Shown here piece by piece: positions 3,719 to 55,471 of a stretch of DNA of 64,000 bases. The notes below the pieces were generated by a model. The model saw only the letters and a list, made by a program, of their open reading frames with translations. It made no database searches and was not told where the DNA came from. Location of the stretch: positions 9,502-73,501 of the forward strand of contig JBAXOD010000003.1 of assembly GCA_037133435.1 (NCBI GenBank), read 5' to 3'. Both the position numbers and the translations under genes were made by a program. The stretch comes from Candidatus Moraniibacteriota bacterium. Lineage in GTDB: Bacteria; Patescibacteriota; Minisyncoccia; Moranbacterales; UBA1568. Position 1 is the stretch's first letter. The number at the start of each line of letters is the position of its first letter.

Positions 3719-3815
3719 ATGGTAGCGTCAGAAGCTTCGGAAGCTGCAAGAGCTTCAAGAGCTTAAATATATATTTCGCGTTACCGAAGTTTTTGAGGCT
3801 TCGGTACGCTTCCTG

Positions 3816-8892: not shown

Positions 8893-9570
8893 ATGATCAA
8901 GCCGGAACGAAAACCATACGGGTATCGGGATTTACTCGCCTATAAGAAGGCCGAGGAATTACAGTTTTCCTGTATGGAATTGACTCATGTGTTTCCGAGG
9001 ATAAAGACCTTGATCGCATTGGCCGATCAGATGGATCGCTCGGCGAGGTCGGTGAAACAGAATATCGTGGAAGGGTGGAAACGGAATTCGACGAAGGAGT
9101 ATTATGATTTCCTGGGATTTTCGATCGGGGCGAATACGGAATTGGAGGAGGATTGTGACGATATTTGGAAGGGGATGTACCCGGAATTGATGAGGGAAAG
9201 GGGTGTAATGGGATGGGAACAAAAGGACAAGATGGGTGAAAGGGAAGTAACGGGTCAGGATCAAGGAGGGGAAATGGGAGCAAAGAGAGGGTTGGATATC
9301 GAGAAATTGAAATTCTATCCGTTGGATGCGGGGTTGCCGAAAGTGGTACGATTGAAATTGAGATGCAAGGAATTGAATTTCCTACTCGATCGGCTTCAAA
9401 AATCGTTGATTGAAAAGATGAAAGAGGAAGAAACCCTTTCATGGAAAGATAAACGATTCCTTGTCAAAGACGTGAAGCGGAAGGAAGAAGACTACGATGA
9501 AAAGATACTTAGGGAAAACGGATTGAAACGCCTTGAGAACGGCCAAGTAGTGGAAGATACCGAAGTATAG
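8893..9570 (+). CDS. four-helix-bundle protein (23S rRNA IVS protein / Avd-like family) with a repetitive Gly/Glu/Lys-rich C-terminal extension
   Basis: The N-terminal ~110 aa (YRDLLAYKKAEELQFSCMELTHVFPR...LADQMDRSARSVKQNIVEGWKR...EYYDFLGFSIGANTELEE) fit the PF05635-like pattern. Imperfect inverted repeats (GGGTAATGG-like motifs) lie at about 8840-8870 and 9625-9657. Confidence 0.6.
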   Translation: MIKPERKPYGYRDLLAYKKAEELQFSCMELTHVFPRIKTLIALADQMDRSARSVKQNIVEGWKRNSTKEYYDFLGFSIGANTELEEDCDDIWKGMYPELMRERGVMGWEQKDKMGEREVTGQDQGGEMGAKRGLDIEKLKFYPLDAGLPKVVRLKLRCKELNFLLDRLQKSLIEKMKEEETLSWKDKRFLVKDVKRKEEDYDEKILRENGLKRLENGQVVEDTEV

Positions 9571-9657: not shown

Positions 9658-12600
9658 ATGTCATTCAAGAAAATAGATTCGAAATCCGATTTCCCGAAGA
9701 TGGAAGAAGAGATGCTCGCCTATTGGAAAGAGCATGACGTCTTTTCGAAGTCGGTCGGGAAGGAAGCGCCGAAGGGAGATTTCGTGTTCTATGAGGGTCC
9801 GCCGACGGCGAACGGTAAACCGGGGCTGCACCACGTGCTCGCTCGGGCGTTCAAGGACGCCATTCCGCGCTACAAGACGATGAAGGGATACCGGGTGCGA
9901 CGCAAGGCCGGGTGGGATACGCACGGATTGCCTGTCGAGCTGCAGGTGGAGAAGGCGCTCGGACTGCGGAGCAAGCAGGATATCGAGAACATCATCCCTG
10001 GTGATGCGCGTGCGAGCGTCGTCGAGTTCAACAAAAAGTGCAAGGAATCCGTCTGGGAATATCGGGATCTGTGGGAGAAACTCACGGAACGCATGGGGTA
10101 CTGGGTGGACATGGAATATCCGTATGTCACCTATGAGGACAGCTATATCGAGTCGGTCTGGTGGCAATTTTCCAAGATCGCGGAGCAAAAGGACAAGGAC
10201 GGGAACGAGCTCCTCTACCGGGGACACAAGGTCGTGCCGTACTGTTACCGGTGCGGGACGGCGCTTTCCTCGCACGAGGTGGCGCAGGGATATCAGACCG
10301 TGAAGGATAATTCGGCGTACGTGAAATTCAAAGTGAAGCCGGGACAGAGGATCGGCAATTTCGTTTCGGACGAAAAGACCTATCTCGTCGCCTGGACGAC
10401 GACGCCGTGGACGCTCCCCGGGAACGTGGCCTTGGCGGTGAGAGAGGACGCGGAGTACTCCATAGGGAAACAGGATAAACCCGCTCATCTTGAAGGCGAG
10501 GAGTTTTCTTCGATTCAGGATGATACGGTGATTCTTCTCACTGAAACGGCGAGAACGGTGATCGGTGATGAGAAGGAGCCCTTTATCGCAACGGAAAAGA
10601 TCACCGGCAAGGATTTGTCGGGCACGGAGTATGAACCGCTCTTCGCCACTTCGGAAGAGGACAACGGCAAGATGTATCGCGTCGTGTCCGACGAAGTGGA
10701 CGGTCTGCACTTCATTACGACCGATACGGGGACGGGCATCGTTCATATCGCGCCGGCGTTCGGCGAGGACGATGCGAACGTCGCGAAAGTGAGCGGTCTA
10801 CCGACCTTGCATACCGTGGACCTCGAAGGGAAAATGATGAGCGGGATTCCCGGAGCCGGTGTCGCGGTCAAGAAAAAGAACGACAAGAACAGGTATGTGG
10901 TCGATGAACTCGTCATCGCCGATCTGCGCGAACGCGGGATGCTGCTCAAGGAGGAAATCTATGAACACGAGTATCCGTTCTGTTGGCGGTGCGAGACGCC
11001 ATTGATATATTTCGCCAAGCCGTCGTGGTTCATCGCTATGAGTACGCTCCGTGACGAGCTTTCGGAAAATGCCGAGGCGATATCGTGGGTGCCGGAGCAT
11101 ATCAAGGAGGGGCGTTTCGGGGAGTGGCTCAAGAGCGCCAAGGATTGGGCGATTTCGCGTGATCGATATTGGGGGACGCCGATCCCGGTGTGGGAATGTG
11201 CCGAATGCGGACGTCGTACGGTCATCGATTCGAAAGCGAGACTCGAGGAACTTTCCGGGAAGAAACCGGAGGACCTGCACAAGCCGTATATCGACGAGGT
11301 GGAGTGGCCGTGTGAATGCGGGCAGGGGACATGCCGGCGGACGCCCGAAGTGCTCGACGTGTGGTTCGATTCCGGAGCGATGCCTTTGGCACAGTACGGA
11401 TATCCGGCAAGCGCGACCGACGAGGAGAAAGACCTGATCGGCGAAGGAAAATACTTCCCGGCGGATTATATCAGCGAGGCGATCGATCAGACCCGCGGGT
11501 GGTTCTATACGCTCCATGCGATCGCGACTTTGCTTCGCAAAGCCGGTGTCGTCGTGACGGGGAATGCGTATCGGAACGTCGTCTGTCTGGGACATATTCT
11601 CGATTCGAAGGGAAAGAAGATGTCCAAATCGATTGGGAATGTCGTTGATCCGTTCGAGATGTTCGGGAAATACGGGGCGGATGCGCTCCGGTGGTATCTC
11701 TATTCCATCAATCAGCCGGGATTGCCGAAACGCTTCGACGAGAAAGGTATGCGCGACGTGATGAACCGGATTTTCCGGATGTTGTGGAATTCATATTCGT
11801 TCTTCACGACATATGCGTCGATCGACGGGTGGGAACCCCCCCGCAACTCTTCGGGTAGTGAGGTGGGCGGGCCGAAAGAAGATATGAAGGTTTCGGAAAA
11901 TATCCTTGACCGGTGGATCTTGTCCGAGTTGCAGGTGCTGATCCGAGAAGTCGACGAATCGCTTTCATCATACGACCTGTATTTGCCGACCGCCAAGATC
12001 GAATCGTTCATCGACGAACTGTCGAACTGGTATATCCGACGCAACCGCAAGCGGTTCTGGAAAAACGAGAACGACGGCGACAAGGACTCGGCTTATGCGA
12101 CCCTCTACGAGGTGCTTGTCACGCTTTCGAAACTCATGGCTCCGTTCACCCCGTTCATCTCTGAGGAGATCTATCGGAACCTGACTGCGGGCGAGTCGGT
12201 GCATCTTGCCTTGTGGCCGGAAGCGGATGAAGGAAGGATCGACGAGAAATTGGGGACGAATATGGCGGCTGTCAGGGAAATCGTGTCTGTCGGTTTACAG
12301 AAAAGGGCGGATGCCGGAATCAAAGTAAGGCAGCCTCTCGCCTCGATTTCTCTCGGAATAAAATACGAGGAATTATTCGGCACGATTTTCGATGAGAAGA
12401 ATCAGGATTCTTTCGTGAATATCATAGTGGAGGAGTTGAACGTGAAAAAAGTCGAACTGAACATATTGCAGGCACTGCTGAATGCGAACGAAGATATCCT
12501 TTTGGATCTTGATATAACGAACCAGCTTGCGCTTGAGGGAGAGGCGCGGGAAATCATCCGGGCGATCCAGGAAGGGCGCAAGAAAGCCGGATTCGAAGTG

Positions 12601-12801
12601 AATGATCGGATTACGATCGGCATCATCGGCAAAGAGACGGTATTCGATGGTGATGCGGAAGTTTCCGGATTCGGGGAAGAGATCGCTCACGAGACGCTCG
12701 CGACCGAAGTCGTCCGCGGCGATATCGAGGACGCGGACTATCGCGAAATCGCGAAGATCGAAGGGGAGATATTTTCCTTCGCGCTGAAACGGAATGTATG
12801 A
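9658..12801 (+). CDS. ileS: isoleucyl-tRNA synthetase
   Basis: 1047-aa protein with HIGH-region PPTANGKPGLHHVLARAFKD, KMSKS (KKMSKSIGN) and class Ia editing/CP1 architecture. Confidence 0.92.
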   Translation: MSFKKIDSKSDFPKMEEEMLAYWKEHDVFSKSVGKEAPKGDFVFYEGPPTANGKPGLHHVLARAFKDAIPRYKTMKGYRVRRKAGWDTHGLPVELQVEKALGLRSKQDIENIIPGDARASVVEFNKKCKESVWEYRDLWEKLTERMGYWVDMEYPYVTYEDSYIESVWWQFSKIAEQKDKDGNELLYRGHKVVPYCYRCGTALSSHEVAQGYQTVKDNSAYVKFKVKPGQRIGNFVSDEKTYLVAWTTTPWTLPGNVALAVREDAEYSIGKQDKPAHLEGEEFSSIQDDTVILLTETARTVIGDEKEPFIATEKITGKDLSGTEYEPLFATSEEDNGKMYRVVSDEVDGLHFITTDTGTGIVHIAPAFGEDDANVAKVSGLPTLHTVDLEGKMMSGIPGAGVAVKKKNDKNRYVVDELVIADLRERGMLLKEEIYEHEYPFCWRCETPLIYFAKPSWFIAMSTLRDELSENAEAISWVPEHIKEGRFGEWLKSAKDWAISRDRYWGTPIPVWECAECGRRTVIDSKARLEELSGKKPEDLHKPYIDEVEWPCECGQGTCRRTPEVLDVWFDSGAMPLAQYGYPASATDEEKDLIGEGKYFPADYISEAIDQTRGWFYTLHAIATLLRKAGVVVTGNAYRNVVCLGHILDSKGKKMSKSIGNVVDPFEMFGKYGADALRWYLYSINQPGLPKRFDEKGMRDVMNRIFRMLWNSYSFFTTYASIDGWEPPRNSSGSEVGGPKEDMKVSENILDRWILSELQVLIREVDESLSSYDLYLPTAKIESFIDELSNWYIRRNRKRFWKNENDGDKDSAYATLYEVLVTLSKLMAPFTPFISEEIYRNLTAGESVHLALWPEADEGRIDEKLGTNMAAVREIVSVGLQKRADAGIKVRQPLASISLGIKYEELFGTIFDEKNQDSFVNIIVEELNVKKVELNILQALLNANEDILLDLDITNQLALEGEAREIIRAIQEGRKKAGFEVNDRITIGIIGKETVFDGDAEVSGFGEEIAHETLATEVVRGDIEDADYREIAKIEGEIFSFALKRNV
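11836..11873 (+). repeat. palindromic hairpin element inserted in-frame in ileS
   Basis: The DNA ccccccgcaactcttcgggtagtgaggtgggcgggccg encodes PPRNSSGSEVGGP. It is related to the copies at 4209, 22885, 34620 and 48059. Confidence 0.5.
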
Positions 12802-26512: not shown

Positions 26513-27202
26513 ATGGGAACCTTGTATCTCGTGGCGACACCAATCGGGAATATGGAAGACATCACGCTCCGGGCGCTTCGCGTGCTCGGGGAATGTGATG
26601 CGGTGCTCGCCGAAGATACGCGCGTGACGCGGCGGTTGCTTGATCGGCACGGCGTCGGGAAGCCGTCGATATCGTGCCATGAGCATACCGACGTGACAAA
26701 GCTCGCGTCGCTTGTTGCCCGTTTGAAAGCGGGGGAATCATTCTCATACGTGACGGACGCCGGTACGCCGGGACTTTCCGATCCGGGAAACCGGCTCGTT
26801 TCCCTCGCGCTTGAAGCGGGCGTCACAGTCGTTCCCGTACCTGGACCGTCCGCTCTCGGAGCGATCGTGTCGGTCGCTGGAATAGATATGCGTGAATTCA
26901 CATTCAAGGGATTTCCACCTCACAAGAAGGGGCGTGAGACATTTTTCCGATATGTCGCGGAATCAGAATTGCCTGTGATCTACTATGAGTCGCCGCACAG
27001 GGTCCTGAAGAATCTCAGTTTACTTGCTTCGTTTTCCCCGGAGAAACGGATTATTCTCGGACGTGAGTTGACCAAGATGTTCGAAGAGACCGTTCGTGGA
27101 ACCGTGAGCGAGGTCCTTGCTCGATTTGAATCCGAACCGACCAAAGTGAAAGGCGAATTCGTCATTATCGCGTATAATGGGAGTAGAGAAAAAAATATAT
27201 GA
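26513..27202 (+). CDS. rsmI: 16S rRNA (cytidine1402-2'-O)-methyltransferase
   Basis: LYLVATPIGNMEDITLRALRVLGECDAVLAEDTR... is the canonical RsmI N-terminus. 229 aa. The stop overlaps the metG start. Confidence 0.8.
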   Translation: MGTLYLVATPIGNMEDITLRALRVLGECDAVLAEDTRVTRRLLDRHGVGKPSISCHEHTDVTKLASLVARLKAGESFSYVTDAGTPGLSDPGNRLVSLALEAGVTVVPVPGPSALGAIVSVAGIDMREFTFKGFPPHKKGRETFFRYVAESELPVIYYESPHRVLKNLSLLASFSPEKRIILGRELTKMFEETVRGTVSEVLARFESEPTKVKGEFVIIAYNGSREKNI

Positions 27203-28644
27203 ACAAACCTTTTTTTATCACCACCGCGATCGACTACGTGAACGGAGAACCGCACGTGGGACACGCCGCCGAGAAAGTGCTGACCGATACGGTTGCACGG
27301 TATCATCGGGACGTCCTCCGAGAGGATACGTTTTTCCTGACAGGTACAGACGAGAACAGTCTCAAGAACGTGCAGGGAGCGGAGAAAGCGGGTCGACCGG
27401 TCGATGAATACGTGAAGGAAAACGCCGAGGCGTTCAAGTCTCTCGGTGATTCACTCGGACTTTCGTTTGATCGATTTATTCGCACGACAGAGGATATCCA
27501 TTTCGCCGGCGCCAAGAAATTCTGGAGCGCGATGAATCCGAATGATCTGTACAAAAAAAGTTATCATGGCCTCTACTGCGTCGGATGTGAAGAATTCAAG
27601 ACGGAGAAGGATCTGATCGATGGGAAGTGTCCGGAACACATGACCGAACCGGAAACGGTCGCGGAGGAGAATTGGTTCTTCCGGCTTTCCTCCTATGGCG
27701 ACCGGCTCAAGAAACTGATCGACTCCGGAGAGATCTCGATCGTGCCGGAATTTCGAAAAAACGAGGTGTTGTCGTTTATCGGCATGGGCCTGGAGGATTT
27801 TTCCGTTTCGCGATCCGTCGCGAGAGCGAAGGGGTGGGGTGTACCGGTGCCCGGCGACGAATCGCAAATCATGTACGTCTGGGTGGACGCGCTTGCAAAT
27901 TATATAACCGCACTTGATTACGCGGGCGACGGTACCGAATATGCGAAATTCTGGGCGGGTGACGGTGAACGGGTTCATATCATCGGCAAAGGCATCCTGC
28001 GTTTCCATGCTATTTATTGGCCGGCTATGTTGCTTTCAGCGAACCTTTCGCTCCCGACGAAGATATATGCACATGAATATCTGACGATCGACGGGGCCAA
28101 GATGTCCAAATCGCTCGGAAACGTCCTGTATCCCGGTGAGCTCGTGGAGCGGTTCGGTAAGGACGGCTCCCGATACCTATTGCTCTCCTCGATACCGTAT
28201 TCCAAGGACGGAGACTTGTCGTGGGCGAAGATGACTGAGAAATTCAATGCCGATCTCGCGAACGGGCTTGGCAATCTCGTGTCGCGCGTGATGCGTCTGT
28301 CCGAAGGGCTCGATGCCGATATGAAAAAAGTCTCGGAAATGCCCGTATTTCCTGAAGAAGTCGCCACGTTGCTTGAATCATACCGTTTCGCGGAAGCGCT
28401 TGAGAAAATCTGGGAGACGGTCCGTGACGCGAACCGCTACATCGAGGAAGAGAAGCCATGGGAGCTCGCGAAGACTGACCGTGAGAAATTCGCCGGCGTA
28501 ATGTCGATCCTGCTCGACCGGCTCGCGTACCTCTCCGTCGCGCTCGTCCCGTTCCTGCCCGACACCGCCGCGAAGATCCGTACATCGCTCGAATCCGGTA
28601 CGACGGAGATTCTTTTCCAAAGGGTGAAGGCAGAAAACAAATAG
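27199..28644 (+). CDS. metG: methionyl-tRNA synthetase (short form)
   Basis: HIGH region (PHVGHAAEKV), KMSKS (KMSKSLGN), zinc knuckle CVGCEEF...C. 481 aa, lacking the C-terminal dimerisation domain. Confidence 0.9.
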   Translation: MNKPFFITTAIDYVNGEPHVGHAAEKVLTDTVARYHRDVLREDTFFLTGTDENSLKNVQGAEKAGRPVDEYVKENAEAFKSLGDSLGLSFDRFIRTTEDIHFAGAKKFWSAMNPNDLYKKSYHGLYCVGCEEFKTEKDLIDGKCPEHMTEPETVAEENWFFRLSSYGDRLKKLIDSGEISIVPEFRKNEVLSFIGMGLEDFSVSRSVARAKGWGVPVPGDESQIMYVWVDALANYITALDYAGDGTEYAKFWAGDGERVHIIGKGILRFHAIYWPAMLLSANLSLPTKIYAHEYLTIDGAKMSKSLGNVLYPGELVERFGKDGSRYLLLSSIPYSKDGDLSWAKMTEKFNADLANGLGNLVSRVMRLSEGLDADMKKVSEMPVFPEEVATLLESYRFAEALEKIWETVRDANRYIEEEKPWELAKTDREKFAGVMSILLDRLAYLSVALVPFLPDTAAKIRTSLESGTTEILFQRVKAENK

Positions 28645-38462: not shown

Positions 38463-38822
38463 ATGGAAAAATTCCGGTTCAGGAAATGGAAAGTGTACAA
38501 TGATTCGCAGGAGCTCTTTTCCCTTATTCTGAAAATTGTTAAGGATCTACCGAAAGAATTCCGTTTCGAAATAGGAAGTCAGATGATCCATGCCGCCTTG
38601 TCGGTAGCGCTTAATATTGCGGAAGGAAGTGGAAAAACTACGGATAAGGAACTGAATCGTTTTCTGAATATTTCCCTCGGCTCCCTCTATGAGACGATGA
38701 CGGCAATGGATGCGTTGAAATTAAACGGGATGGTTCAAGAAGAGCGGTATGATGAGGCGATGAAACAGATAGATGGGATTTCAAACCAGCTTGGTGGGTT
38801 AAAGAAAACACTTGTGAAATGA
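38463..38822 (+). CDS. four-helix-bundle protein (23S rRNA IVS protein / Avd-like family) inserted between atpD and atpC
   Basis: The 119-aa protein (ELFSLILKIVKDLPKEFRFEIGSQMIHAALSVALNIAEGSGKTTDKELNRFLNISLGSLYET...) fits the family. It is flanked by heptamer arrays in opposite orientations: acaactN upstream, ttgtaag downstream. Confidence 0.65.
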   Translation: MEKFRFRKWKVYNDSQELFSLILKIVKDLPKEFRFEIGSQMIHAALSVALNIAEGSGKTTDKELNRFLNISLGSLYETMTAMDALKLNGMVQEERYDEAMKQIDGISNQLGGLKKTLVK

Positions 38823-39413: not shown

Positions 39414-42400
39414 ATGGAAGGGCGATATATTCCCGAGAATATCGAGGGAAAGTGGCAGAAAAAATGGGAGGAACAAGGGACGTTCCGGCAATACGGCCGT
39501 GAGCGGAAGTTCTATGCGCTTGATATGTTCCCGTACCCTTCGGGGGCCGGGCTGCATGTGGGGCATCCGAAGGGCTATATCGCGACGGATGTGATCGCAC
39601 GGATGAAACAGCTTCAGGGGTATGCGGTGCTGCATCCGATGGGGTGGGACGCATTCGGTCTCCCGGCGGAACAGTACGCGATCAAGAATAAGACGCATCC
39701 GAGCAAGACGACGCGGGAGAATGTCGCCACCTTCAAGGGGCAGCTCGGCCGGCTCGGCTTCACGTACGACTGGGATCGTGAGATCAATACGACCGACCCG
39801 GAGTATTACAAGTGGACACAGTGGATATTTCTGCAGATGCTGAAGAAGGGGCTCGCGTATGAATCGTACGAGCCGATTATCTGGTGTCCGTCGTGCCAGA
39901 CGGGACTCGCGAACGAGGATCTGGAGAACGGCGCGTGCGAGCGGTGCGGGACGATCGTCGAGAAGAAACCGATGCGCCAGTGGGTGCTGCGCATCACCGA
40001 TTATGCTGATCGACTATTGGAAGGGCTCGGCTCGCTTGATTGGCCGGAGTCGATCAAGGAATCGCAGCGCAACTGGATCGGACGGAGCGAAGGAACCGTC
40101 ATACGGTTCCAAATCATAAATCCCAAATTACAATTTCCAAACAAATCCCAAAACACGGATTCGAAATCACAAACGAAGGAGGAATTCATCGAGGTGTTCA
40201 CGACGCGGGTGGATACGCTGTATGGTTGCACCTATGTGGTGGTGGCGCCTGAACATCCTTTGATCAGGGAACAGTTAACAGATAACAGTGAACAGATAGC
40301 AGAGATCAAGAATTGGGAAGAGGTCCGTGCGTATATCGAAGAAACGAAGAAGAAGACCGAGATGGAGCGGACGGCGGAGGGGCGCGAAAAGACCGGCGTT
40401 CGGCTCGAAGGTATCATGGCGGTCAATCCGATAAACGGTGAGGAAGTGCCGGTGTTCGTCGCGGATTATGTGCTCGGTGATTACGGTACCGGCGCGGTGA
40501 TGGCCGTCCCGGCGCACGACACGCGTGATTTCGCCTTCGCGAAAAAATACGACCTGCCGATCAAGAATGTCATCATGCCGCACCTGACCGATAAGAAGAA
40601 CCCTCCGCGGGAAGGGAAGAAGTCCGTCGAACGCAATACCATCCACGCGTTGGTACGGAATCCGAAGGACGGGAAATTCCTGTGTCTAGAGTGGAAGAAT
40701 CATCCATGGACCACATTCATCGTGGGCGGCGTGGAAGACGGTGAGGACATCGTCGAGGCCGCCAAACGGGAAGTGCTCGAGGAGACGGGATTCTCGAATC
40801 TGCGACATATCGGAACCTTGGACAGGAAAGTGCGAAGCGAATATTTCGCGGCGCACAAGGACGAGAATCGGGTCGCGAATACGACAGCGGTTTTGTTCGA
40901 ACTTGAAGACGAATCACGAGAATCGGTCACCGAGGAAGAGGTCGCGAAACACTCGGTCCTCTGGCTTTCGCTCGACGAGATCAGGAATCGCGAAATGACC
41001 TGTGCGGAACTCGATATCTGGCTTGGGTGGCTCGAAGGGAAAGACGATGCGTTCGTTGACGACGGGGCGCTTACGGATTCCAGTGAGTTTTCCGGACTCT
41101 CTTCCGAAGCCGCGCGTGAGAAAATCAACGCGAAACTTGAAGCCGATGGGAACGGGAAGAAGGTCGTGAAATACAAGCTCCGCGAGTGGGTGTTCTCGCG
41201 TCAACGGTATTGGGGGGAGCCGATCCCAGTCGTGCACTGCGAAAAGTGTGGTGTGGTGCCCGTGCCGGAAAACGAACTCCCGGTGTTTCTGCCGGATGTC
41301 GAAAGCTACGAGCCGACGGGAACGGGGGAGTCGCCTTTGGCCGCGATTGAGAGTTGGGTGAATACGACCTGTCCCACGTGCGGCGGGCCCGCGAAACGCG
41401 AGACGAATACGATGCCTCAATGGGCAGGGTCTTCGTGGTACTACCTGCGCTATATCGATCCGTTGAACCAGGACGTGCTCGTCGGCAAGGAACTGGAAAA
41501 GGAATGGATGCCGGTCGACGTGTATGTCGGCGGGGCGGAGCATGCGACACGGCACCTTATTTATGCCCGGTTCTGGCATAAGTTCCTCTTTGATATCGGC
41601 GCGATTTCGACGGACGAGCCGTTTCGGAAACTTTGCAATGTGGGGCTTATCCTCGCCTCCGACGGGCGCAAGATGTCCAAGCGGTGGGGGAACGTCGTCA
41701 ATCCGGACGATATGGTCCGCGATTTCGGCGCGGACGCGATGCGGCTCTACGAGATGTTCATGGGTCCGTTCAACCAGAATATTTCCTGGAACACCGACGG
41801 TGTCGTCGGCACGAGGCGGTTTTTGGAGAAGGTGTGGAAGCTGCAAAACAGACTTACAACTGACAACTTACCACCGACAACAGAAGAATCGGGACTGACA
41901 ACTGACAACTCATCCGCGACATCTCCGTGCGCGGACCCGCTCGCAAAGACGAGCGGGCAACCGACAAAAATAGATTGCCTTCTTCATCGGACTATCGTGA
42001 AGGTGATGGAGGACATCGAAGCTATGCGGTTCAATACGGCAGTGAGCACACTTATGATCCTTGTGAACGCGTTCGAGAAGGAAGGAACGATCACGAAGGA
42101 ATCATACGGCATCTTCCTCTTGCTCCTGTCGCCGTTCGCTCCGCATATCGCGGAAGAGCTGTGGGCCGGACTTGGAAATCCCGAATCGATATTCCTCTCG
42201 ACATGGCCCGTGGCCGACCTGGCCTTGCTTGTGGAAGATACCGTGAAAATCGTCGTCTCGGTCAACGGCAAGGTCCGCGATACGTTCGAAGTACCCGCAG
42301 ACGCGACCGAAGACGATCTGAAAGCGAAAGCGTTCGCGAGTGACAAAATCGCCAAGTTCCTCGACGGCCGGGAGCCCAAGCGCGTCATCGTCGTTCCTGG

Positions 42401-42425
42401 GAAATTGGTGAACGTGGTGGTATGA
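39414..42425 (+). CDS. leuS: leucyl-tRNA synthetase with an embedded NUDIX domain
   Basis: HIGH region (GAGLHVGHPKGY), KMSKS (KMSKRWGN), CP1 editing domain. A ~150-aa NUDIX-fold segment containing GGVEDGEDIVEAAKREVLEETG lies between ...KYDLPIKNVI and ...SSEFSGLSSEAAREKI. A heptamer/hairpin insertion (LTTDNLPPTTEESGLTTDNSS...PLAKTSGQP) sits near the anticodon-binding domain. 1003 aa. Confidence 0.9.
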   Translation: MEGRYIPENIEGKWQKKWEEQGTFRQYGRERKFYALDMFPYPSGAGLHVGHPKGYIATDVIARMKQLQGYAVLHPMGWDAFGLPAEQYAIKNKTHPSKTTRENVATFKGQLGRLGFTYDWDREINTTDPEYYKWTQWIFLQMLKKGLAYESYEPIIWCPSCQTGLANEDLENGACERCGTIVEKKPMRQWVLRITDYADRLLEGLGSLDWPESIKESQRNWIGRSEGTVIRFQIINPKLQFPNKSQNTDSKSQTKEEFIEVFTTRVDTLYGCTYVVVAPEHPLIREQLTDNSEQIAEIKNWEEVRAYIEETKKKTEMERTAEGREKTGVRLEGIMAVNPINGEEVPVFVADYVLGDYGTGAVMAVPAHDTRDFAFAKKYDLPIKNVIMPHLTDKKNPPREGKKSVERNTIHALVRNPKDGKFLCLEWKNHPWTTFIVGGVEDGEDIVEAAKREVLEETGFSNLRHIGTLDRKVRSEYFAAHKDENRVANTTAVLFELEDESRESVTEEEVAKHSVLWLSLDEIRNREMTCAELDIWLGWLEGKDDAFVDDGALTDSSEFSGLSSEAAREKINAKLEADGNGKKVVKYKLREWVFSRQRYWGEPIPVVHCEKCGVVPVPENELPVFLPDVESYEPTGTGESPLAAIESWVNTTCPTCGGPAKRETNTMPQWAGSSWYYLRYIDPLNQDVLVGKELEKEWMPVDVYVGGAEHATRHLIYARFWHKFLFDIGAISTDEPFRKLCNVGLILASDGRKMSKRWGNVVNPDDMVRDFGADAMRLYEMFMGPFNQNISWNTDGVVGTRRFLEKVWKLQNRLTTDNLPPTTEESGLTTDNSSATSPCADPLAKTSGQPTKIDCLLHRTIVKVMEDIEAMRFNTAVSTLMILVNAFEKEGTITKESYGIFLLLLSPFAPHIAEELWAGLGNPESIFLSTWPVADLALLVEDTVKIVVSVNGKVRDTFEVPADATEDDLKAKAFASDKIAKFLDGREPKRVIVVPGKLVNVVV
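41851..41960 (+). repeat. ACAACTN heptamer array plus CCCGCTCGCAAAGACGAGCGGG hairpin, in-frame in leuS
   Basis: acttacaactgacaacttaccaccgacaac...ggactgacaactgacaactcatcc followed by gacccgctcgcaaagacgagcgggcaacc. Confidence 0.55.
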
Positions 42426-42450: not shown

Positions 42451-42831
42451 ATGGAAAATGACAAAGAAAAATTCAAAGTTAAATTTAAAAGACGTCTCTA
42501 TGTATTCGCTCTTAGTATAGTGAAATGTATCGACACGCTTCCTCGTGGGACCGTATCAGACGTACTTGGAAAACAGCTCTTAAGAAGTGGAACGAGCGTA
42601 TTGGCGAATTATATTGAAGCGCAGGCGGCAAGTTCAAAAAAAGATTTCAGGAATTTCTTCTCATATTCACTGAAGTCGGCAAATGAATCAAAAGTGTGGA
42701 TTGTTCTGTTGAAGGATTCCGGAAAAATCGGGACAGAAAAGGCGGATATGCTTCTCAAGGAATGTATCGAGATATCGAATATACTTGCGAAAAGTGTCAT
42801 TACCATGAAGGAGAATGAAAAGAAGAAGTAA
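42451..42831 (+). CDS. four-helix-bundle protein (23S rRNA IVS protein / Avd-like family)
   Basis: 126-aa protein (YVFALSIVKCIDTLPRGTVSDVLGKQLLRSGTSVLANYIEAQAASSKKDFRNFFSYSLKSANESKVW). An inverted repeat gaaaaat(t/g)gagatataaaaatg lies at about 42426-42455 and, as reverse complement, at about 42850-42880. Confidence 0.6.
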   Translation: MENDKEKFKVKFKRRLYVFALSIVKCIDTLPRGTVSDVLGKQLLRSGTSVLANYIEAQAASSKKDFRNFFSYSLKSANESKVWIVLLKDSGKIGTEKADMLLKECIEISNILAKSVITMKENEKKK

Positions 42832-45554: not shown

Positions 45555-45616
45555 TACCCACACGTTTATGGAAACGAAAAACGGCACGGATACGTGTCGT
45601 TTTTCGTTCTTTATAG

Positions 45617-45700
45617 TACCGCGGGAGAGACTCGAACTCTCATGGTATCGCTACCGCGGGATTTTGAGTCCCGTGTGTCTACCAGTTCCACCACCGCGGC
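45617..45700 (-). tRNA. tRNA-Leu (anticodon CAA), type II with long variable arm
   Basis: Folded by hand on the minus strand: acceptor GCCGCGG/CCGCGGU (G1-U72), 3-bp D-stem GUG/CAC, anticodon stem CGGGA/UCCCG with loop CUCAAAA, variable arm GGUAGCGAUACC, T-arm GAGAG-UUCGAGU-CUCUC, discriminator A. CCA is not encoded. Confidence 0.8.
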
Positions 45701-48992: not shown

Positions 48993-51671
48993 ATGTCTGA
49001 AAAGGATTTTTTCGCTATCGGAGAGGAACGACGGAAGCTTCGTCACGAGGTGCTTGATGCGACCGGGTTTTCGGCACACGAAGTGTCTTCGCGTGGCGGA
49101 GTGGTCGCGAAACCGGAATTCATGAAGGAGGTCAATGAAGGCAACCTTTCAAATGTCGCGGAGAAGGTCGTGCTCGATGCGGACTCGGCGCCTTCGGTAT
49201 CCGAGGGACTTGACCGTATCGAGGCGTTGAACGAGAAAGCAAAGGAGTTCAAACTTTTTCCGGACCGACCGGAGAAAACCGAAGCGGTGTCGCCTGAACA
49301 AACGGAGCGGTCACTTTCCGATGTCCGCCGACGATATGCAAAAGCGCGCGAGGCCAAGGCGCTTGATGGTGGAGGAGAGAAGCCGACGAGGATGGATACA
49401 GAAGAGACGCTCATCGAGCCAAACGAAAAGGAACAGCGAAAGGCAAACCTTTTCCAGGAACTTTATTCGATGGAACGATTTTCCACACTCCAGAAGCAGG
49501 GTCGGTATCGTTTGTTGCGCCGACCGGAAGATGAGCGACTTGCCGAACGGCTTCGTATAGGCGCGGACCTCACGCGGACCGTCATAAAACGGCGCGAAAC
49601 ACTTGAGGCGGATGTGGATACGAGATACGTGGTCCGTGAATATGAGCTGTCGAAATATCGGCAACAGCTGACAAACGAACGCTTCGTGGTCACGCCGAGT
49701 CGGCGTGGCTATATCGATCGGATCGGATCACTCATCGAACAAGGAAAGCCGATTCTTGAGGAAGGGCATACCGGTGGTGGCAAGACCGAGCTCGCGAAGT
49801 ATGCCGCGCGCGAATGTACCGGTCGTGAAGCTGAGGTCGTGTATTGCAACCCACAGACCCGCCAGAGCGATATTTTCGGCAGGCAATCACTTCGTGAAAG
49901 TGACCGCGGGGCAACCGTGACGGATATCGATTTCGGTCCGCTCACGAGGGCTCTTACCGAAGGGAAAATCTGTATTTTCGATGAATTTAACGAGCTTGAC
50001 CCGAGATTCCGGCAGGTGCTCAAAGCCCTCTACAACGCGAAACCTGGGGACATGGTGAACGTGCCGGGCAATGGCAAAGTTCTCGTCGCACAAGGGTTCG
50101 GTTGCATCATGACCGCGAACCTCAAGAGTGAGAAATATGCCGAGAAGGGTGCGCTTGAACCGCAAGAAACACGAGTGTTTCTTGATTCGACCATTCGGAC
50201 GGACTATCCGCCTGCTTCGGAATTGTACGATGTCGCACTGTCCTCACTTGCCGATACGCAGGGGAACGTGCTTCTGACGCGCGAAGAGGCGGACACGACC
50301 CTGAAGCATTTCACCGATGCCATCCACGATATACAGGAGGCATATGCGAACACACTCCCGGCACACTATGGAAATGACACCGATTTTTCGGCGTTCGGGA
50401 AGGGGTCGAAACGGGGGAAACGACCGCAACTCGAGAAATACGTGCTCGATACCGGTATGGCGGTGCGACTCTTACAGGGATTTCGAATCGCACGGATGGA
50501 ACACGGGACATCGCTTGTCGATTTCCTCGACGAAGCACTCATCCGGACCTTCGAGGGGGACAAGATCGGTGAAGAGGACAAGCGCCTCGCGATCTATATG
50601 TTGGCCCAAAAAGGATTCCTCTCAGGATACAAGCAAGAGGACTTTCGGACACGCATCGGGGTCGATTACTCCGACAAGAAGCTCGATCCGACGACATTAT
50701 CAAAATCGAAACGAGCCGAGCTTTCTCCGGACGAAAGCTTTGCGACCCTGTCCGCCGAAGAGGTGGCGAGAATCGATCCGTATGAACGGATGAGAATCGA
50801 CGCGAATGAGGAGCTCGGATTGCCGTCCACGTCACCGGATAAGCCGGGCTCTCCTGAATACCACAGTTTCAGGGAGGCACGGGATATCTTCAAGGAGCGT
50901 TTCTATGGGCCAGAGGAAACAGAGCAGGTCTTCGGGTTCCGACCGGAAGCACCACCGATCCCGTATACAAAAGCAGACATGCTCCGGCACGAACAGCTCG
51001 GTCATATCCTGATGTACAATCCGGATATATTGCCAGACGGGACGCCGTTCGATATTCAGACCATGGCCAGTCGTGCGCTTTCCGGCGGACGCAATGTCTT
51101 GGAACGCGATGCGAGCGGAATTCCGACGAAGTATCTCCTCTACAAGGAGCAGTTTGACGAAAATGGTAAGATCTTGGACGGTGCTTGGTTTTCTGGCGAT
51201 CAAGAAGTGAAAACCGGCACCCCACAGTCTGGGTGGCAGTTTGTCTCGCCCGAGGCCTTGCCTGATACGGAAAACAAAAACTTCGTCGCGCAGACGGATA
51301 TCCTGATCGAGAATGCGAGAGAAAATTTCTTTGGCGGAGGAGTACCGGATGCATTTCAAAAAGCCGTCGATGAATGGCATTCAAAGAAGGTTATGTTCAA
51401 AGATGATGCCAACAAGCTTGCGTCGCTTCCAATCATGAACTTTGTGCGTGAACGAGTACAAAATACGATATTTCGGTTTCTCCTCGTACATGGAACAGGA
51501 AGAGGGACGCTGTTCGCGGACGGCAATTATGTCTGGTCATATGCACTCTCGTCGGGCGGCAGCCTCGTTTCCTTCGGCTTTGCGGTCGCGGTTGGCGCGG
51601 ACGTGTACGGGTACGCGCCGGTTGACTCGTACTCGGATTTGCGTGCCGTGGCCTCCCGCAGTGGATGTTGA
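48993..51671 (+). CDS. DGR target protein: MoxR-like AAA+ ATPase (AAA_5-type) with a C-terminal hypervariable (VR-encoded) domain
   Basis: Walker A LEEGHTGGGKTELAKYA, Walker B ICIFDEFNELD, sensor GFGCIMTANLK. The last ~40 codons are the VR of the DGR; they differ from the downstream TR only at adenine positions. Confidence 0.8.
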   Translation: MSEKDFFAIGEERRKLRHEVLDATGFSAHEVSSRGGVVAKPEFMKEVNEGNLSNVAEKVVLDADSAPSVSEGLDRIEALNEKAKEFKLFPDRPEKTEAVSPEQTERSLSDVRRRYAKAREAKALDGGGEKPTRMDTEETLIEPNEKEQRKANLFQELYSMERFSTLQKQGRYRLLRRPEDERLAERLRIGADLTRTVIKRRETLEADVDTRYVVREYELSKYRQQLTNERFVVTPSRRGYIDRIGSLIEQGKPILEEGHTGGGKTELAKYAARECTGREAEVVYCNPQTRQSDIFGRQSLRESDRGATVTDIDFGPLTRALTEGKICIFDEFNELDPRFRQVLKALYNAKPGDMVNVPGNGKVLVAQGFGCIMTANLKSEKYAEKGALEPQETRVFLDSTIRTDYPPASELYDVALSSLADTQGNVLLTREEADTTLKHFTDAIHDIQEAYANTLPAHYGNDTDFSAFGKGSKRGKRPQLEKYVLDTGMAVRLLQGFRIARMEHGTSLVDFLDEALIRTFEGDKIGEEDKRLAIYMLAQKGFLSGYKQEDFRTRIGVDYSDKKLDPTTLSKSKRAELSPDESFATLSAEEVARIDPYERMRIDANEELGLPSTSPDKPGSPEYHSFREARDIFKERFYGPEETEQVFGFRPEAPPIPYTKADMLRHEQLGHILMYNPDILPDGTPFDIQTMASRALSGGRNVLERDASGIPTKYLLYKEQFDENGKILDGAWFSGDQEVKTGTPQSGWQFVSPEALPDTENKNFVAQTDILIENARENFFGGGVPDAFQKAVDEWHSKKVMFKDDANKLASLPIMNFVRERVQNTIFRFLLVHGTGRGTLFADGNYVWSYALSSGGSLVSFGFAVAVGADVYGYAPVDSYSDLRAVASRSGC
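51543..51658 (+). repeat. DGR variable repeat (VR) at the 3' end of the target gene
   Basis: 116-bp gapless alignment with the TR at about 51925-52040. About 15 mismatches, every one at a TR adenine. The 3' end ...gatttgcgtgccgtggcctcccg is identical (IMH-like). Encodes ...ALSSGGSLVSFGFAVAVGADVYGYAPVDSYSDLRAVASR. Confidence 0.8.
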
Positions 51672-52448: not shown

Positions 52449-53474
52449 ATGTTCGAACGGATTATCTCACTTGAGAACCTGGTTGGCGCGTGGCGTGAAT
52501 TCCGAATCGGGAAACGTTCCAAAAAAGACGTCATCGAGTTCGGTGATCGGGTCGAAGAATATCTCGTGGCGCTCGCTCTCGACCTGAAAGCCGGGAAGTA
52601 TCGTCACGGACAGTATACCCGATTCATCGTCCACGATCCAAAACGGAGGGAAATATCCAAGGCGCCGGTCCGTGACCGGGTGCTCCACCATGCCCTTTGC
52701 CGAGTGATCGTTCCCGTGTTCGATCGCGGATTCATTTTCGATTCGTATGCGAATCGGACCGGGAAAGGGACACTTTCCGCGAATGACCGGCTCGATGCCT
52801 TCGTCCGGAAATGCTCGCGAAACGGCTCGCGCACGGCGTTCGTATTGAAGGCTGATATCCGGAAATACTTCGATTCGGTCGATCACGAAACGTTGCTTCG
52901 GATTTTGGGTCGACGGATCCGATGTGAACGAACGCTCGGATTGCTTCACTTTGTCGTTTCGAGCTTTGAAACGTCTCCCGGTAAAGGTATTCCACTCGGA
53001 AACTTGACGTCGCAACTGTTCTCCAACGCGTATCTCGATCCATTTGACCAGTTCGTAAAGCGAGAGCTCGGTGTGAAATACTATATCCGGTATGCCGATG
53101 ATTTCGTGGTCCTTTCGGACGATGTGGGAGCGCTTGACCGCATGCGGTCACGTATGGATGCGTTCCTGACCCTGAATCTCGGCCTCACGCTACATCCCGA
53201 GAAGACACGGATTGTTCGATTCGGGAGCGGGGTGGATTTTCTCGGGAAGGTGCATTTCCGATTTCACCGGGTCCTTCGCGTGAAAACGAAGAGACGAAGT
53301 ATCCGGAGAATCGCATCTCGGAATGAGTCATCGTATATCGGACTCCTGAGACATTCGCGGTCGCATGGATTGGTACGGATACTCCGTGATATACTGGAAC
53401 AAAGGAATATTTTGGAAGAAGTATGCGTGAACCCGTCTACAAAGCCGAGCGGAGCGTGGACCAGTCGGGTATGA
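52449..53474 (+). CDS. DGR reverse transcriptase
   Basis: RT motifs including YADDFVV. The DGR-diagnostic LGNLTSQ (I/LGxxxSQ in motif 4, replacing the group II intron QG). N-terminus MFERIISLENLVGAW resembles the Bordetella bRT start. The ORF track offers 52374 as an upstream start, but that would overlap avd. Confidence 0.85.
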   Translation: MFERIISLENLVGAWREFRIGKRSKKDVIEFGDRVEEYLVALALDLKAGKYRHGQYTRFIVHDPKRREISKAPVRDRVLHHALCRVIVPVFDRGFIFDSYANRTGKGTLSANDRLDAFVRKCSRNGSRTAFVLKADIRKYFDSVDHETLLRILGRRIRCERTLGLLHFVVSSFETSPGKGIPLGNLTSQLFSNAYLDPFDQFVKRELGVKYYIRYADDFVVLSDDVGALDRMRSRMDAFLTLNLGLTLHPEKTRIVRFGSGVDFLGKVHFRFHRVLRVKTKRRSIRRIASRNESSYIGLLRHSRSHGLVRILRDILEQRNILEEVCVNPSTKPSGAWTSRV

Positions 53475-55471
53475 CACGTCCCGATTCGGGCGACAACGGC
53501 GACCCGGTGGCCGATTTTATCGAACGAAACAAACGTGCGCTTACGCAGTATGCCGGCGATGCGTCGCTTTCCGTGCGTTCTGCCGAGGGGGTGATGACAC
53601 CAGACGGCCCGCTTGAGACATGCGCGATCGATCTTGAGAAGGGAGAATATTATTTGCATCGACGGTTCCGGGACGGGGCATACGGTGGATCCGAGGAGAA
53701 GATGCTCTTCGGGGCGTTTCATGAGATAGAACACTTCCGCGAGCTTCGGGGTCTTTTGCGGGAGCACACCGGGTCGGACGTCTGGCGGAAATTGCGAAAG
53801 AAAAAAGAAGAACGGACGCGGTATCATATATTGGATAATTCTTTTGGTGATGTGAAGATGAATAATGCGGTCGTGAATCGCGCGCCCGTATTGTCCGGGA
53901 CGCGGGAAGAACTGTATCGGAGCGACCTATTTCCCGAGCGGGACTTGACGGGCCTTCCGAAACATTTGCAGTTCGTGCACGTGCTGAATTGCGAGATGCA
54001 GATCCCGGGCGAGACCTGGACGGTCGATCCGGACGTCCGTGAGGAATTCGAGAAACTGAAAACGATACGCGGTCAGAAATCCGGACGCCCGATACTCGAG
54101 TATGCGACCCATCCGGATATCTCGATGCGTGATCGACTGATCGTGCAAGACGCGCTCATCGAACCGGTGTACGAAAAATTCTTCGTAGAGGACGTTCGGA
54201 AGAAACAAGAACAGCAATCGAACAAACCTTCGGAATCGGGGCAAAAAAATGGTGAACCGGACCAAAGCGGGGATGCATCGAAACCGGGAAGCAGTGATGG
54301 AAAGCCGGATACGAATCAGGAGCCTCCATCGGAATCGTCTTCGAAGCCAGGGAATGAAATGCCTGGGCAGAGCGAAGGGGCTTCGGGTAAGTCGACCGAT
54401 GAAAACAGGACTGACCCCGAGAATCCCGAGGCATATTTCCGTAAGGAATATGATGACTATTTTAAACAGCATCCGGAGGCGATACCAAAAGACGTGTTGA
54501 AGCGTGTTGTGGAAGAGGAAATCACACGACAAAACGAAAGCATGCGAGATCCTGGAAAAAACGCGTTCGATGCGTATGCCCGGGCGCAGGGCGTCGAGCC
54601 GAACGATCTTCGGAACTATATGCGTTTCCGTGACTCGCTCGAAAAAATAACCGATTCGGAAACAGGCGAATCGGTTGTAGATGCGATACGAGAACTGTTC
54701 GAGCGGATTATTTCGAAACGTTTGAAGTGGATGCCAGAGCCGAAATACCCACTTCCGGAAGGGGACGAGCTTGAATATCCTGCAGAAGCAGTTGTCAGGA
54801 CACGCGCTGGCGAGACAGAACCAGACGTATGGAGTGAGACGGAATTTCGTGAAAAAGAGGGGGATTTCACGGGTGACTTCGATGTGACTCTTGTTGGTGA
54901 TACCTCGATTTCGATGGCGGAAAATGGCGGGAAAAAACGGGACGAACAGAAGAAAGGCATCATATTGATCATGGAGGCACTTTCTGAATTCTCGGAGCGA
55001 TTAGAAGAGGTGCGCTCGCGGCTCCGACATGATCTGCACGTCCGTTCGGAAGGATGGGTATTCGGGAATTCGGCGGAATGTGTCAAACCGCTGTCCGAGG
55101 ATTTGTCGGAGAAAGACCGGGTCGCGATGTACAAGCGACTTGGGAACACGAGCGGATCGACGAAGGACTTTCTCGTACTCAAAAAGTTGTCTGATGCCCT
55201 GACCGAAGATGAAGTGAATCGCATACGTAATGGAAGTCTTAAAAAAATTGTTATCGTCATGACCGATGGAGATAGTGATAACGTAGCGCTTGTACAAGAA
55301 GAGCTCAAAAAACTTCGTGATAATGGCGTCATCGTTATCGGCGTAGGGATAACTGAAGAAGGGAAATCGGCACTGACGACCTATGCGCCGGAGGCGAGGC
55401 TTTGTGAAAAAGCGACGGATGTAGCCATGGTTCTCGGTGAACTGCTCAAGGAACATCTCCGGAGCCTTTAA
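53471..55471 (+). CDS. vWA domain protein (MIDAS motif) with N-terminal HExxH-containing region
   Basis: C-terminal vWA domain: DVTLVGDTSISM ... IVIVMTDGDSDN (DxSxS...T...D MIDAS). N-terminal FHEIEHF. Central low-complexity acidic/Ser-Gly-rich linker. The start ATG overlaps the RT stop (ATGA). The ORF track start 53423 is in the same frame. Confidence 0.7.
   Translation: MTRPDSGDNGDPVADFIERNKRALTQYAGDASLSVRSAEGVMTPDGPLETCAIDLEKGEYYLHRRFRDGAYGGSEEKMLFGAFHEIEHFRELRGLLREHTGSDVWRKLRKKKEERTRYHILDNSFGDVKMNNAVVNRAPVLSGTREELYRSDLFPERDLTGLPKHLQFVHVLNCEMQIPGETWTVDPDVREEFEKLKTIRGQKSGRPILEYATHPDISMRDRLIVQDALIEPVYEKFFVEDVRKKQEQQSNKPSESGQKNGEPDQSGDASKPGSSDGKPDTNQEPPSESSSKPGNEMPGQSEGASGKSTDENRTDPENPEAYFRKEYDDYFKQHPEAIPKDVLKRVVEEEITRQNESMRDPGKNAFDAYARAQGVEPNDLRNYMRFRDSLEKITDSETGESVVDAIRELFERIISKRLKWMPEPKYPLPEGDELEYPAEAVVRTRAGETEPDVWSETEFREKEGDFTGDFDVTLVGDTSISMAENGGKKRDEQKKGIILIMEALSEFSERLEEVRSRLRHDLHVRSEGWVFGNSAECVKPLSEDLSEKDRVAMYKRLGNTSGSTKDFLVLKKLSDALTEDEVNRIRNGSLKKIVIVMTDGDSDNVALVQEELKKLRDNGVIVIGVGITEEGKSALTTYAPEARLCEKATDVAMVLGELLKEHLRSL

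Follow-up and report, generated by a model that had tools for sequence, protein, structure and literature searches.

Leucyl-tRNA synthetase (LeuRS) belongs to the best-studied enzymes of translation and is a validated drug target. The enzymes of Thermus thermophilus (1H3N/2BYT) and Escherichia coli (4AQ7/4ARC) combine the HIGH and KMSKS signatures of the synthetic site with a threonine-rich motif, the editing aspartate, and anticodon-binding and C-terminal domains. In a 2026 census of domain insertions, the LeuRS editing domain was found to be insertion-exclusive, with zero instances as a host in 213 events (PMC13114784). Here, we describe a leuS gene whose product has this overall architecture in common with the known enzymes and carries a complete Nudix domain inside the CP1 editing domain. 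The gene was found in a stretch of 64,000 nt from Candidatus Moraniibacteriota bacterium (contig JBAXOD010000003.1, positions 9,502-73,501, forward strand), which is referred to as the window and in which all coordinates are counted.

Several essential, nucleotide-using enzymes that carry a second, unrelated catalytic domain have been described, such as isoleucyl-tRNA synthetase (IleRS) with an N-acetyltransferase domain (NF040702), LysX, which unites LysRS and MprF (PMC9437257), and NadM-Nudix (2QJT). The window LeuRS resembles them in this respect. It differs in that the second enzyme is not attached to an end but nested inside a domain which is itself an insertion, and in that the Nudix domain of LeuRS has several alternative sites, can be present more than once and is swapped for unrelated domains among close orthologues. 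Compared with the T. thermophilus and E. coli enzymes, the window protein has the Nudix domain in place of the CP1 hairpin loop, lacks the leucine-specific domain and contains two disordered inserts. The most frequent and best-scoring characterised relatives of the inserted domain, by profile and structure comparison, are RppH/NudH and the hydrolases of diadenosine tetraphosphate (Ap4A) and related ApnA compounds (4S2W/7SP3, 1F3Y, 3I7U, human NUDT2 and T. thermophilus Ndx1). The insert shares their fold and contains a complete Nudix box, but is only 15-26% identical to these free-standing enzymes, scores at about one fifth of their family cutoffs, shows a signature of its own (Arg407, H-K-D-x-N-R and Trp517) and is embedded in a synthetase.

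All component families are already known, and the proteins are public with automatic domain hits. A reading of the window from its letters alone (the sequence-only reading) had pointed out the fusion and was not aware of a description. A full-text literature search found no paper that describes a Nudix domain as part of LeuRS or of another aminoacyl-tRNA synthetase (aaRS). The sole mention of "Nudix" in the PfIleRS paper is an entry of its reference list, and the eLife paper on conflict systems makes no link between aaRSs and Nudix enzymes. What appears to be undescribed is how the domains are nested and how far this architecture has spread, as well as the Nudix subfamily associated with aaRSs and the exchange of cassettes.

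A Nudix domain nested in the CP1 editing domain

The host gene and the elements of its product are the following, with the basis of each assignment in brackets.

39414..42425, forward strand: leuS, complete bacterial-type leucyl-tRNA synthetase, 1003 aa (translation of the open reading frame, ORF)
39555..39566, forward strand: HIGH signature HVGH, aa 48-51, synthetic site (translation)
40068..40574, forward strand: N-terminal part of the CP1 editing domain, aa 219-387 (Pfam PF13603)
40200..40217, forward strand: threonine-rich editing motif TTRVDT, aa 263-268 (translation)
40512..40529, forward strand: AHDTRD with the conserved editing aspartates, aa 367-372 (translation)
40575..41042, forward strand: inserted segment of 156 aa, aa 388-543, Nudix domain with conserved N- and C-terminal extensions (gap in the alignment to T. 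thermophilus LeuRS)
40590..40634, forward strand: conserved N-terminal extension DKKNPPREGKKSVER, aa 393-407, ending in Arg407 (81 homologues)
40635..40991, forward strand: core of the Nudix fold, aa 408-526 (Pfam PF00293)
40725..40793, forward strand: Nudix box GGVEDGEDIVEAAKREVLEETGF, aa 438-460, catalytic metal-binding motif (translation)
40854..40871, forward strand: family motif H-K-D-E-N-R, aa 481-486, candidate substrate (phosphate) binding loop (81 homologues)
41043..41183, forward strand: C-terminal part of CP1 and return linker, aa 544-590 (the T. thermophilus alignment resumes at aa 544 = Tt 374)
41670..41684, forward strand: KMSKS signature KMSKR, aa 753-757, synthetic site (translation)

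The leuS product matched the NCBIfam model TIGR00396 (leuS_bact) with 1031.7 bits (cutoff 548.4), the match being split into two stretches with a break at aa 395. Against the T. thermophilus enzyme it reached 746 bits. The full-length AlphaFold2 (AF2) model, with a mean predicted local distance difference test value (pLDDT) of 86.6 and a predicted template modelling score (pTM) of 0.79, superposes on the E. coli and T. thermophilus enzymes with template modelling (TM) scores of up to 0.86, the fold matches to known LeuRS ranging between TM 0.81 and 0.86. In a set of 86 LeuRS homologues, H48, G50 and H51 of the HIGH signature as well as K753, M754 and K756 of the KMSKS signature are invariant. 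The same is true for the editing residues T263, T264, T268, H368, D369, R371 and D372, be the Nudix domain present or not. With these editing-site and synthetic-site signatures intact, the host is an otherwise normal LeuRS.

Its further peculiarities lie outside these sites. The leucine-specific domain (Tt 581-636) has no counterpart in the window LeuRS (41658..41684, aa 749-757), and the spacing between VGLILA and KMSK is only four residues there and in every relative in which both motifs were found. This absence is no bar to membership in the bacterial leucine--tRNA ligases, as the feature is not universal; the LeuRS of M. mobile is also devoid of the domain. The two disordered low-complexity inserts (pLDDT <50) comprise aa 240-254 (40131..40175) and aa 818-848 (41865..41957). 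The latter is a Thr/Asp/Asn-rich "LTTDN/TTEE" stretch of very variable length among close relatives, with 63 residues between the anchors in the window protein against 110 in P0005 and roughly 34 in the majority of relatives.

The boundaries of the insert follow from the alignment to T. thermophilus LeuRS (1H3N), in which aa 4-387 pair with Tt 3-362 and aa 544-749 with Tt 374-580, so that aa 388-543 replace 11 residues (Tt 363-373). Close relatives free of the insert have 17 residues at this point (orthologue P0016, locus L003). The sequence-only reading, which had described a segment of about 150 aa in place of a short loop, is borne out in this. Its coordinates, 40576..41040, deviate by no more than one to two bases but miss the reading frame by one base, the codon-exact segment being 40575..41042. 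The insertion falls between the AHDTRD...KKYDLPI and SEFSGL... blocks of LeuRS. Pfam reports the same interruption from the side of the host: PF13603 matches aa 219-395 with profile positions 1-148 of 185 only and then breaks off, and in the relative P0014 the profile positions 150-185 match the stretch equivalent to aa 544-590 of the window protein.

Within the segment, PF00293 (NUDIX) was detected with 47.5 bits in the whole protein and with 53.5 bits when the segment was searched alone (cutoff 21.1), the match being nested within the editing domain PF13603. The box GGVEDGEDIVEAAKREVLEETGF agrees with the consensus GX5EX7REUXEEXGU at all defined positions, in the layout G438-x5-E444-x7-R452-E453-V-L-E456-E457-T-G459-F460. 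A complete domain with an intact box, as had been proposed from the letters, is therefore present. Among 81 Nudix-bearing homologues, the box residues are kept in nearly every sequence (G438 in 81, G439 in 81, E444 in 79, R452 in 80, E453 in 80, E456 in 79, E457 in 80 and G459 in 80).

The insert has the alpha/beta/alpha Nudix fold. Modelled alone by AF2, the domain reached a pLDDT of 92.9; in the full-length model the Nudix region has pLDDT values of 88-95 and is flanked by the strands 387-392 and 551-553. Structure prediction places the Nudix domain at the tip of the CP1 beta-hairpin, between its two strands. The ratio of nonsynonymous to synonymous substitution rates (dN/dS) of the Nudix segment is 0.065-0.077 between the window and its close relatives, in the same range as the synthetase core (0.02-0.23), and the domain is under strong purifying selection like the core. 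To judge from its residues, the inserted domain is apparently catalytically competent.

Other origins of the segment were considered and rejected. An intein or another self-splicing insert does not fit, as Pfam reports no Hint or intein family in the protein, the junctions ...NVI|MPHL... and ...LEGK|DDAF... are without splice residues and the insert is a folded Nudix domain. For a mobile element, neither meaningful flanking direct or inverted repeats nor an anomaly in GC content or in GC content at third codon positions (GC3) was found. A further Nudix gene of the window (8004..8483) shows no significant sequence similarity to the insert and was rejected as its source.

Distribution and exchange of the inserted domain

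Species-representative genomes of GTDB were scanned with a Nudix-only alignment of 8 sequences, which gave 155 loci with a relative, of which the best 80 were examined. At 79 of these 80 loci the Nudix domain lies in frame between both LeuRS flanks with zero stop codons, and the remaining one is truncated by the end of its contig. The loci derive from metagenome-assembled genomes (MAGs) labelled Moran-, Taylor-, Wildermuth-, Yanofsky-, Yonath-, Uhr- and Kerfeldbacteria, Paceibacterota and "Patescibacteria group"; the labels Saccharibacteria, Gammaproteobacteria and Woesearchaeota, which third parties assigned automatically to some of them, seem unreliable. In addition, about 105 of the 120 best LeuRS homologues have PF00293 in their precomputed domain lists. 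This in-frame recurrence far exceeds chance, and the LeuRS-Nudix architecture is common and conserved among public Patescibacteria genomes.

These observations also decide on the suspicion of a chimeric assembly or a wrongly called gene. Since independent GTDB species loci recurrently carry the Nudix domain in frame with both LeuRS flanks, this explanation is refuted and retains practically no weight. A protein 100% identical to the window LeuRS (P0003) is present in NCBI, Logan and ENA, its NCBI source being a Candidatus Moraniibacteriota MAG, the GC and GC3 of the insert fall inside the gene's own range, and a dN/dS of 0.07 likewise speaks against an artefact. Nothing at the window locus supports it. 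Elsewhere, one database fragment of 695 aa (P0200) does look chimeric, with the N-terminal half of LeuRS followed by a Nudix domain and by sequence resembling sigma-70 region 2 (recognised by eye); it is probably a chimeric contig or a mis-called database gene and is unrelated to the window.

While the architecture is widespread, the domain is not fixed. The gene order atp operon - leuS - RNase T-like exonuclease - bacA - folD is kept in related Moranbacteria contigs, and within this order the state of leuS varies as follows.

Window: Nudix only
P0004, locus L004: Nudix and a 145-aa ASCH-like insert after HCExCG
P0014, locus L002: nucleotidyltransferase (PF10706) exactly at the Nudix position, and ASCH
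P0016, locus L003: nothing inserted (17-aa loop)
P0022: ASCH only (protein sequence, locus not fetched)

The N-terminal core of P0014 is 94% identical to that of the window LeuRS. The ASCH-like domain of 145 aa (PF04266) scored 20.8 bits, just below the cutoff of 21.2; it is present in P0004, P0005, P0014 and P0022 (L004 2336-5827, L002 191-3490) and absent from the window LeuRS, where the equivalent position is about 41250. A second group of LeuRS proteins with 87-94% core identity shows four different states at the one CP1 loop.

P0073: no insert
P0087: a domain of 155 aa and of unknown kind
P0047: a MutT-like Nudix domain
P0026: a Nudix domain of the variant H-K-D-V-N-C

PF00293 is absent from the precomputed annotation of the P0087 insert, a segment which was not scanned alone, and no Pfam or NCBIfam family was found for an insert of 180 aa in P0103. 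P0006 and P0007 are 82-87% identical to the window protein over CP1 and Nudix and only 58% over the N-terminal core. Over 3160 sequence pairs, the identities of core and Nudix domain are nearly uncorrelated (Pearson 0.25, Spearman 0.07). The inserted domain behaves as an exchangeable cassette that is lost or replaced between close orthologues. In comparison of the window with its closest relatives L004 and L006, the synonymous rate (dS) of the Nudix segment is 0.26 versus 0.38-0.65 in the flanking LeuRS segments, and this value of about half is compatible with a recent recombination of the module.

Other LeuRS loops in Patescibacteria host alpha/beta Ser-hydrolase, HAD, DUF559 and Ham1-like domains, and the Nudix insertion of the window is one instance of this far broader tendency of LeuRS to host domains like cassettes. 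In P0184, a LeuRS of 1330 aa, a complete RdgB/HAM1 non-canonical purine NTP pyrophosphatase (TIGR00042, 183 bits, cutoff 145) lies between the catalytic and the anticodon-binding domains.

The same Nudix family was also searched exhaustively in 1.84 billion representative proteins with the insert and short flanks as query. The search yielded 468 hits, of which the best 150 were classified: 121 contain LeuRS sequence, 2-3 are prolyl-tRNA synthetases (ProRS) and in 27 no part of a synthetase was detected, a group that includes fragments and about a dozen proteins of stand-alone size. In LeuRS, the family occurs with up to three copies per protein at four positions.

Site 1: between ADRLLxDL and QRNWIGRSEG
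Site 2: between RNWIGRSEG and TTRxDT
Site 3: the CP1 hairpin, as in the window
Site 4: after HCExCG

In P0017, P0025, P0034 and P0123, the copy closest to that of the window (57-61% identity) is found at site 1 and not at the hairpin. Outside LeuRS, the H-K-D-x-N-R Nudix is independently inserted in a ProRS of archaeal type, where it separates the anticodon-binding domain from the C-terminal one. Five clusters of this kind (P0272-P0276), 61-100% identical, were obtained from JGI, Logan and NCBI, and two loci were located.

L086, 5593-7524: ProRS-Nudix
L087, 3720-5744: ProRS-Nudix, with a further Nudix gene and a MazG gene nearby

The Nudix box is slightly degenerate in the ProRS-embedded copies. 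Those of the nearest Nudix-free ProRS relatives that are named are mostly labelled Nanoarchaeota or Woesearchaeota. One ProRS relative of DPANN type (P0360, 716 aa) is annotated with an extra B3_4 domain (PF03483, of the editing type of the PheRS beta-subunit), which is another unusual accessory domain on a synthetase of DPANN-type lineages. The free-standing relative P0002 is neighboured by DUF5680, another Nudix gene and an ABC transporter, a context that is uninformative.

Family signature and possible function

Besides the box, the 81 homologues share a set of residues specific to this family. The N-terminal extension DKKNPPREGKKSVER follows the pattern D-x-x-N-P-P-x-x-G-K-x-x-V-x-R and terminates at Arg407 (N396 in 59 of 81, P397 in 56, P398 in 65, K402 in 63 and R407 in 75). 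Within the motif H-K-D-E-N-R, H481 is conserved in 72, K482 in 79, N485 in 78 and R486 in 70 sequences; across LeuRS-embedded, ProRS-embedded and stand-alone members, its lysine and asparagine are invariant and its histidine and arginine at least 90% conserved. Further signature residues outside the box are Trp427, Trp432, Tyr or Phe at position 477 and Trp517. When the comparison is extended to ProRS-embedded and stand-alone members, Arg407, Lys482, Asn485 and Trp517 are invariant. By these features, an invariant N-terminal arginine, the H-K-D-x-N-R loop and an invariant tryptophan, the insert belongs to an uncharacterised Nudix subfamily.

In the NCBIfam profiles, no named Nudix family was matched at its cutoff by the window segment, which scored about 24 bits on the NudB model (cutoff 103) and 24.2 bits on the RppH model PRK00714 (cutoff 116). 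Profile voting with 27 family members ranked RppH first (27/27, best E-value 3.6e-9, all scores on this model being far below the family cutoff), followed by NudB (26/27), NudE (25/27) and YtkD (22/27). An identity as MutT or 8-oxo-dGTPase was rejected, as these models match only 7-12 of the 27 members, with weak E-values and below cutoffs. A sequence profile search of the PDB ranked the lupin Ap4A hydrolase 1F3Y first, AvrM14-A and AvrM14-B second and third and the Ap4A hydrolase of Aquifex fourth. The alignment to AvrM14, a cap-cleaving rust effector and decapping Nudix enzyme, is nearly full-length, and its K-D-x-x-R aligns with the H-K-D-E-N-R motif. The MutT/nudix protein 2AZW of E. faecalis, which is 16-18% identical and stands alone, gives no functional lead, because its PDB entry lists no function. 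ApnA hydrolases have a specificity tyrosine in the X-loop that follows the Nudix box (PMC5389931). In the insert, Y477 is located 17 residues past the box, in a position where 46 of the 81 homologues have Tyr and 24 have Phe, and the tyrosine rule would apply at most loosely. Taken together, the profile of its relatives is a weak pointer to substrates with dinucleoside-polyphosphate or cap-like linkages.

We therefore favour, with a probability of roughly 0.55, the interpretation that the insert is an autonomous and catalytically competent Nudix pyrophosphohydrolase of an uncharacterised subfamily, positioned at the CP1 hairpin tip of an otherwise complete LeuRS which serves as its host scaffold. 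The module would act alone on a free nucleotide-polyphosphate substrate, most likely an Ap4A-type dinucleoside polyphosphate or a related NpnN- or NTP-like compound, which would be cleaved to nucleoside mono- or diphosphates. LeuRS would be an essential, constitutively expressed scaffold and possibly a local source of the substrate, rather than a partner in amino-acid proofreading. Synthetases are established makers of Ap4A as a side product and of Ap4-capped RNA (PMC9437257). An Ap4A-type substrate is plausible, and would be the most plausible one, because synthetases make such compounds and because enzymes that cleave NpnN or cap linkages are the closest characterised relatives of the insert. 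The autonomy of the module is argued from the identity of the family residues in LeuRS-embedded, ProRS-embedded and stand-alone members together with the four sites in LeuRS. In this interpretation the Nudix domain would be one of several house-cleaning or hydrolase cassettes (RdgB, MutT-like Nudix, HAD, alpha/beta-hydrolase) parked in LeuRS loops of reduced genomes; the company of RdgB, MutT-like Nudix and HAD domains in these loops suggests house-cleaning enzymes parked in an essential, always-expressed gene.

Three observations weigh against this hosting interpretation. That a single Nudix family is repeatedly paired with both LeuRS and ProRS, which are unrelated, suggests a closer functional connection to aminoacylation or tRNA than hosting alone. 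Unrelated domains also turn over fast at one loop, a picture that resembles a conflict or immunity system more than housekeeping. Finally, IleRS (9658..12801) and the methionyl-tRNA synthetase (27199..28644) of the window have no extra domain, and the use of any essential gene as a host therefore fails to explain the preference for LeuRS. A wider proposal, which we put forward tentatively and hold to be possible at best, is that the aaRSs of ultra-small symbionts (Patescibacteria and, for ProRS, DPANN) are docking platforms for rapidly exchangeable, nucleotide-directed cassettes, with the H-K-D-x-N-R Nudix tied to aminoacylation. The cassettes may comprise one to three Nudix copies, RdgB, HAD, alpha/beta-hydrolase, nucleotidyltransferase and ASCH domains, and the Nudix domain might degrade what the synthetase itself produces, be it Ap4A-type compounds or Np4 caps, or neutralise nucleotide toxins or signals aimed at it.

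Because simple hosting explains neither the two-synthetase pairing nor the loop turnover, two more specific functions keep some weight. An RNA-end enzyme of the RppH or decapping type, which would remove a 5' triphosphate or an Np4N- or NAD-type cap from synthetase-held tRNA or other RNA, has its rationale in the tRNA 5' end, which adjoins the acceptor end handled by CP1. We regard it as doubtful: all RppH-type scores are far under the family cutoffs, stand-alone copies retain the same specificity residues, the module is missing from close orthologues, only LeuRS and ProRS would be served, and a fixed geometry towards the bound tRNA end is disfavoured because the module occupies four places in LeuRS. 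Somewhat more doubtful still is a conflict or immunity module, in which the loop domains (Nudix, nucleotidyltransferase, alpha/beta-hydrolase, HAD, ASCH, RdgB) would destroy or modify nucleotide-like toxins, antibiotics or signals and turn over in an arms race. The four states at one loop among LeuRS of 87-94% core identity, the exchange of Nudix for nucleotidyltransferase at 94% identity of the N-terminal core, the decoupling of the module's history from the host gene (Spearman 0.07) and the aminoglycoside/lincosamide-modifying type of the swapped-in nucleotidyltransferase count for it, as does LeuRS being a known target of adenylate-mimic toxins (agrocin 84/TM84; PMC5059758). The Nudix domain is, however, old, widespread and under strongly purifying selection, unlike typical fast-evolving defence genes, and an ordinary RdgB is among the hosted domains. 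Furthermore, we know of no aaRS-directed toxin with a pyrophosphate bond of the kind cleaved by Nudix enzymes.

Readings that deny the module a hydrolase function of its own, or tie it to editing, fare worse. The Nudix fold could be a non-catalytic structural, tRNA-binding or ligand-sensing appendage of CP1, comparable to the Nudix-fold regulators NrtR and AraR; this is improbable, as conservation of each catalytic box residue in 79-81 of 81 LeuRS sequences is unexpected for a purely structural domain and close orthologues manage without it. The sequence-only reading had raised, as its second idea next to Ap4A, the hydrolysis of a mis-activated aminoacyl-adenylate, by which the Nudix domain would share in LeuRS editing. 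LeuRS and ProRS both mis-activate near-cognate amino acids, and the insertion starts only 15 residues past the conserved editing residue Asp372. Such proofreading is nevertheless unlikely, even more so than a structural role. All homologues, whether they carry the Nudix domain or not, have kept the canonical editing residues. The module also occurs at three LeuRS sites outside CP1, its specificity residues are unchanged where it stands alone as a protein, and in close orthologues with 81-94% core identity it is absent or replaced by unrelated domains. Besides, aminoacyl-AMP does not contain the diphosphate bound by Nudix enzymes, and its acyl-phosphate is not a nucleoside-diphosphate-X substrate.

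Other genes of the window and implications

Further genes of the window are listed below.

3815..4210, reverse strand: tmRNA gene
8004..8483 (ORF from 7905, TTG start): stand-alone Nudix gene (PF00293)
8893..9570: 23S_rRNA_IVP four-helix-bundle protein gene (PF05635)
38463..38822: 23S_rRNA_IVP four-helix-bundle protein gene (PF05635)
42451..42831: 23S_rRNA_IVP four-helix-bundle protein gene (PF05635)
45616..45700, reverse strand: tRNA-Leu(CAA) gene
48993..51671: AAA_5 (dynein-related/MoxR-like) ATPase gene
53423..55471: VWA-domain gene

The stand-alone Nudix gene, correctly recognised by the sequence-only reading, matches PF00293 with 47.5 bits. It is MutT/PRK08999-like by weak NCBIfam matches and more MutT-like than the LeuRS insert, and is located directly downstream of a gene of the histidine phosphatase family (7375..7986), the end of which is overlapped by its longest ORF. 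Two of the three 23S_rRNA_IVP genes immediately flank leuS; at the orthologous locus L004 their slots are occupied by a Tad4-family gene and a GIY-YIG gene, and small variable genes therefore fill fixed intergenic slots. The tRNA-Leu(CAA) gene is the sole tRNA gene of the window; it follows leuS at a distance of 3.2 kb and is encoded on the other strand. The vicinity of the AAA_5 ATPase gene to the VWA-domain gene resembles the known MoxR-VWA pairing.

For LeuRS, the finding means that CP1, regarded as always being inserted itself, is here the host of a second, apparently active enzyme across a large bacterial radiation. The locus offers a natural system for the study of domain insertion and recombination in essential genes, and it defines a new Nudix subfamily ready for biochemical assignment. 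There is also a consequence for annotation, as many such genes are labelled at NCBI only with the vague "class I tRNA ligase family protein". If the docking-platform proposal were true, these proteins would form a previously unrecognised class of "armed" synthetases with a cassette turnover driven by recombination at conserved flanks. For organisms unable to make nucleotides, the architecture suggests a direct and testable physical link between a synthetase and the turnover of nucleotide polyphosphates, be they Ap4A, caps or non-canonical NTPs.

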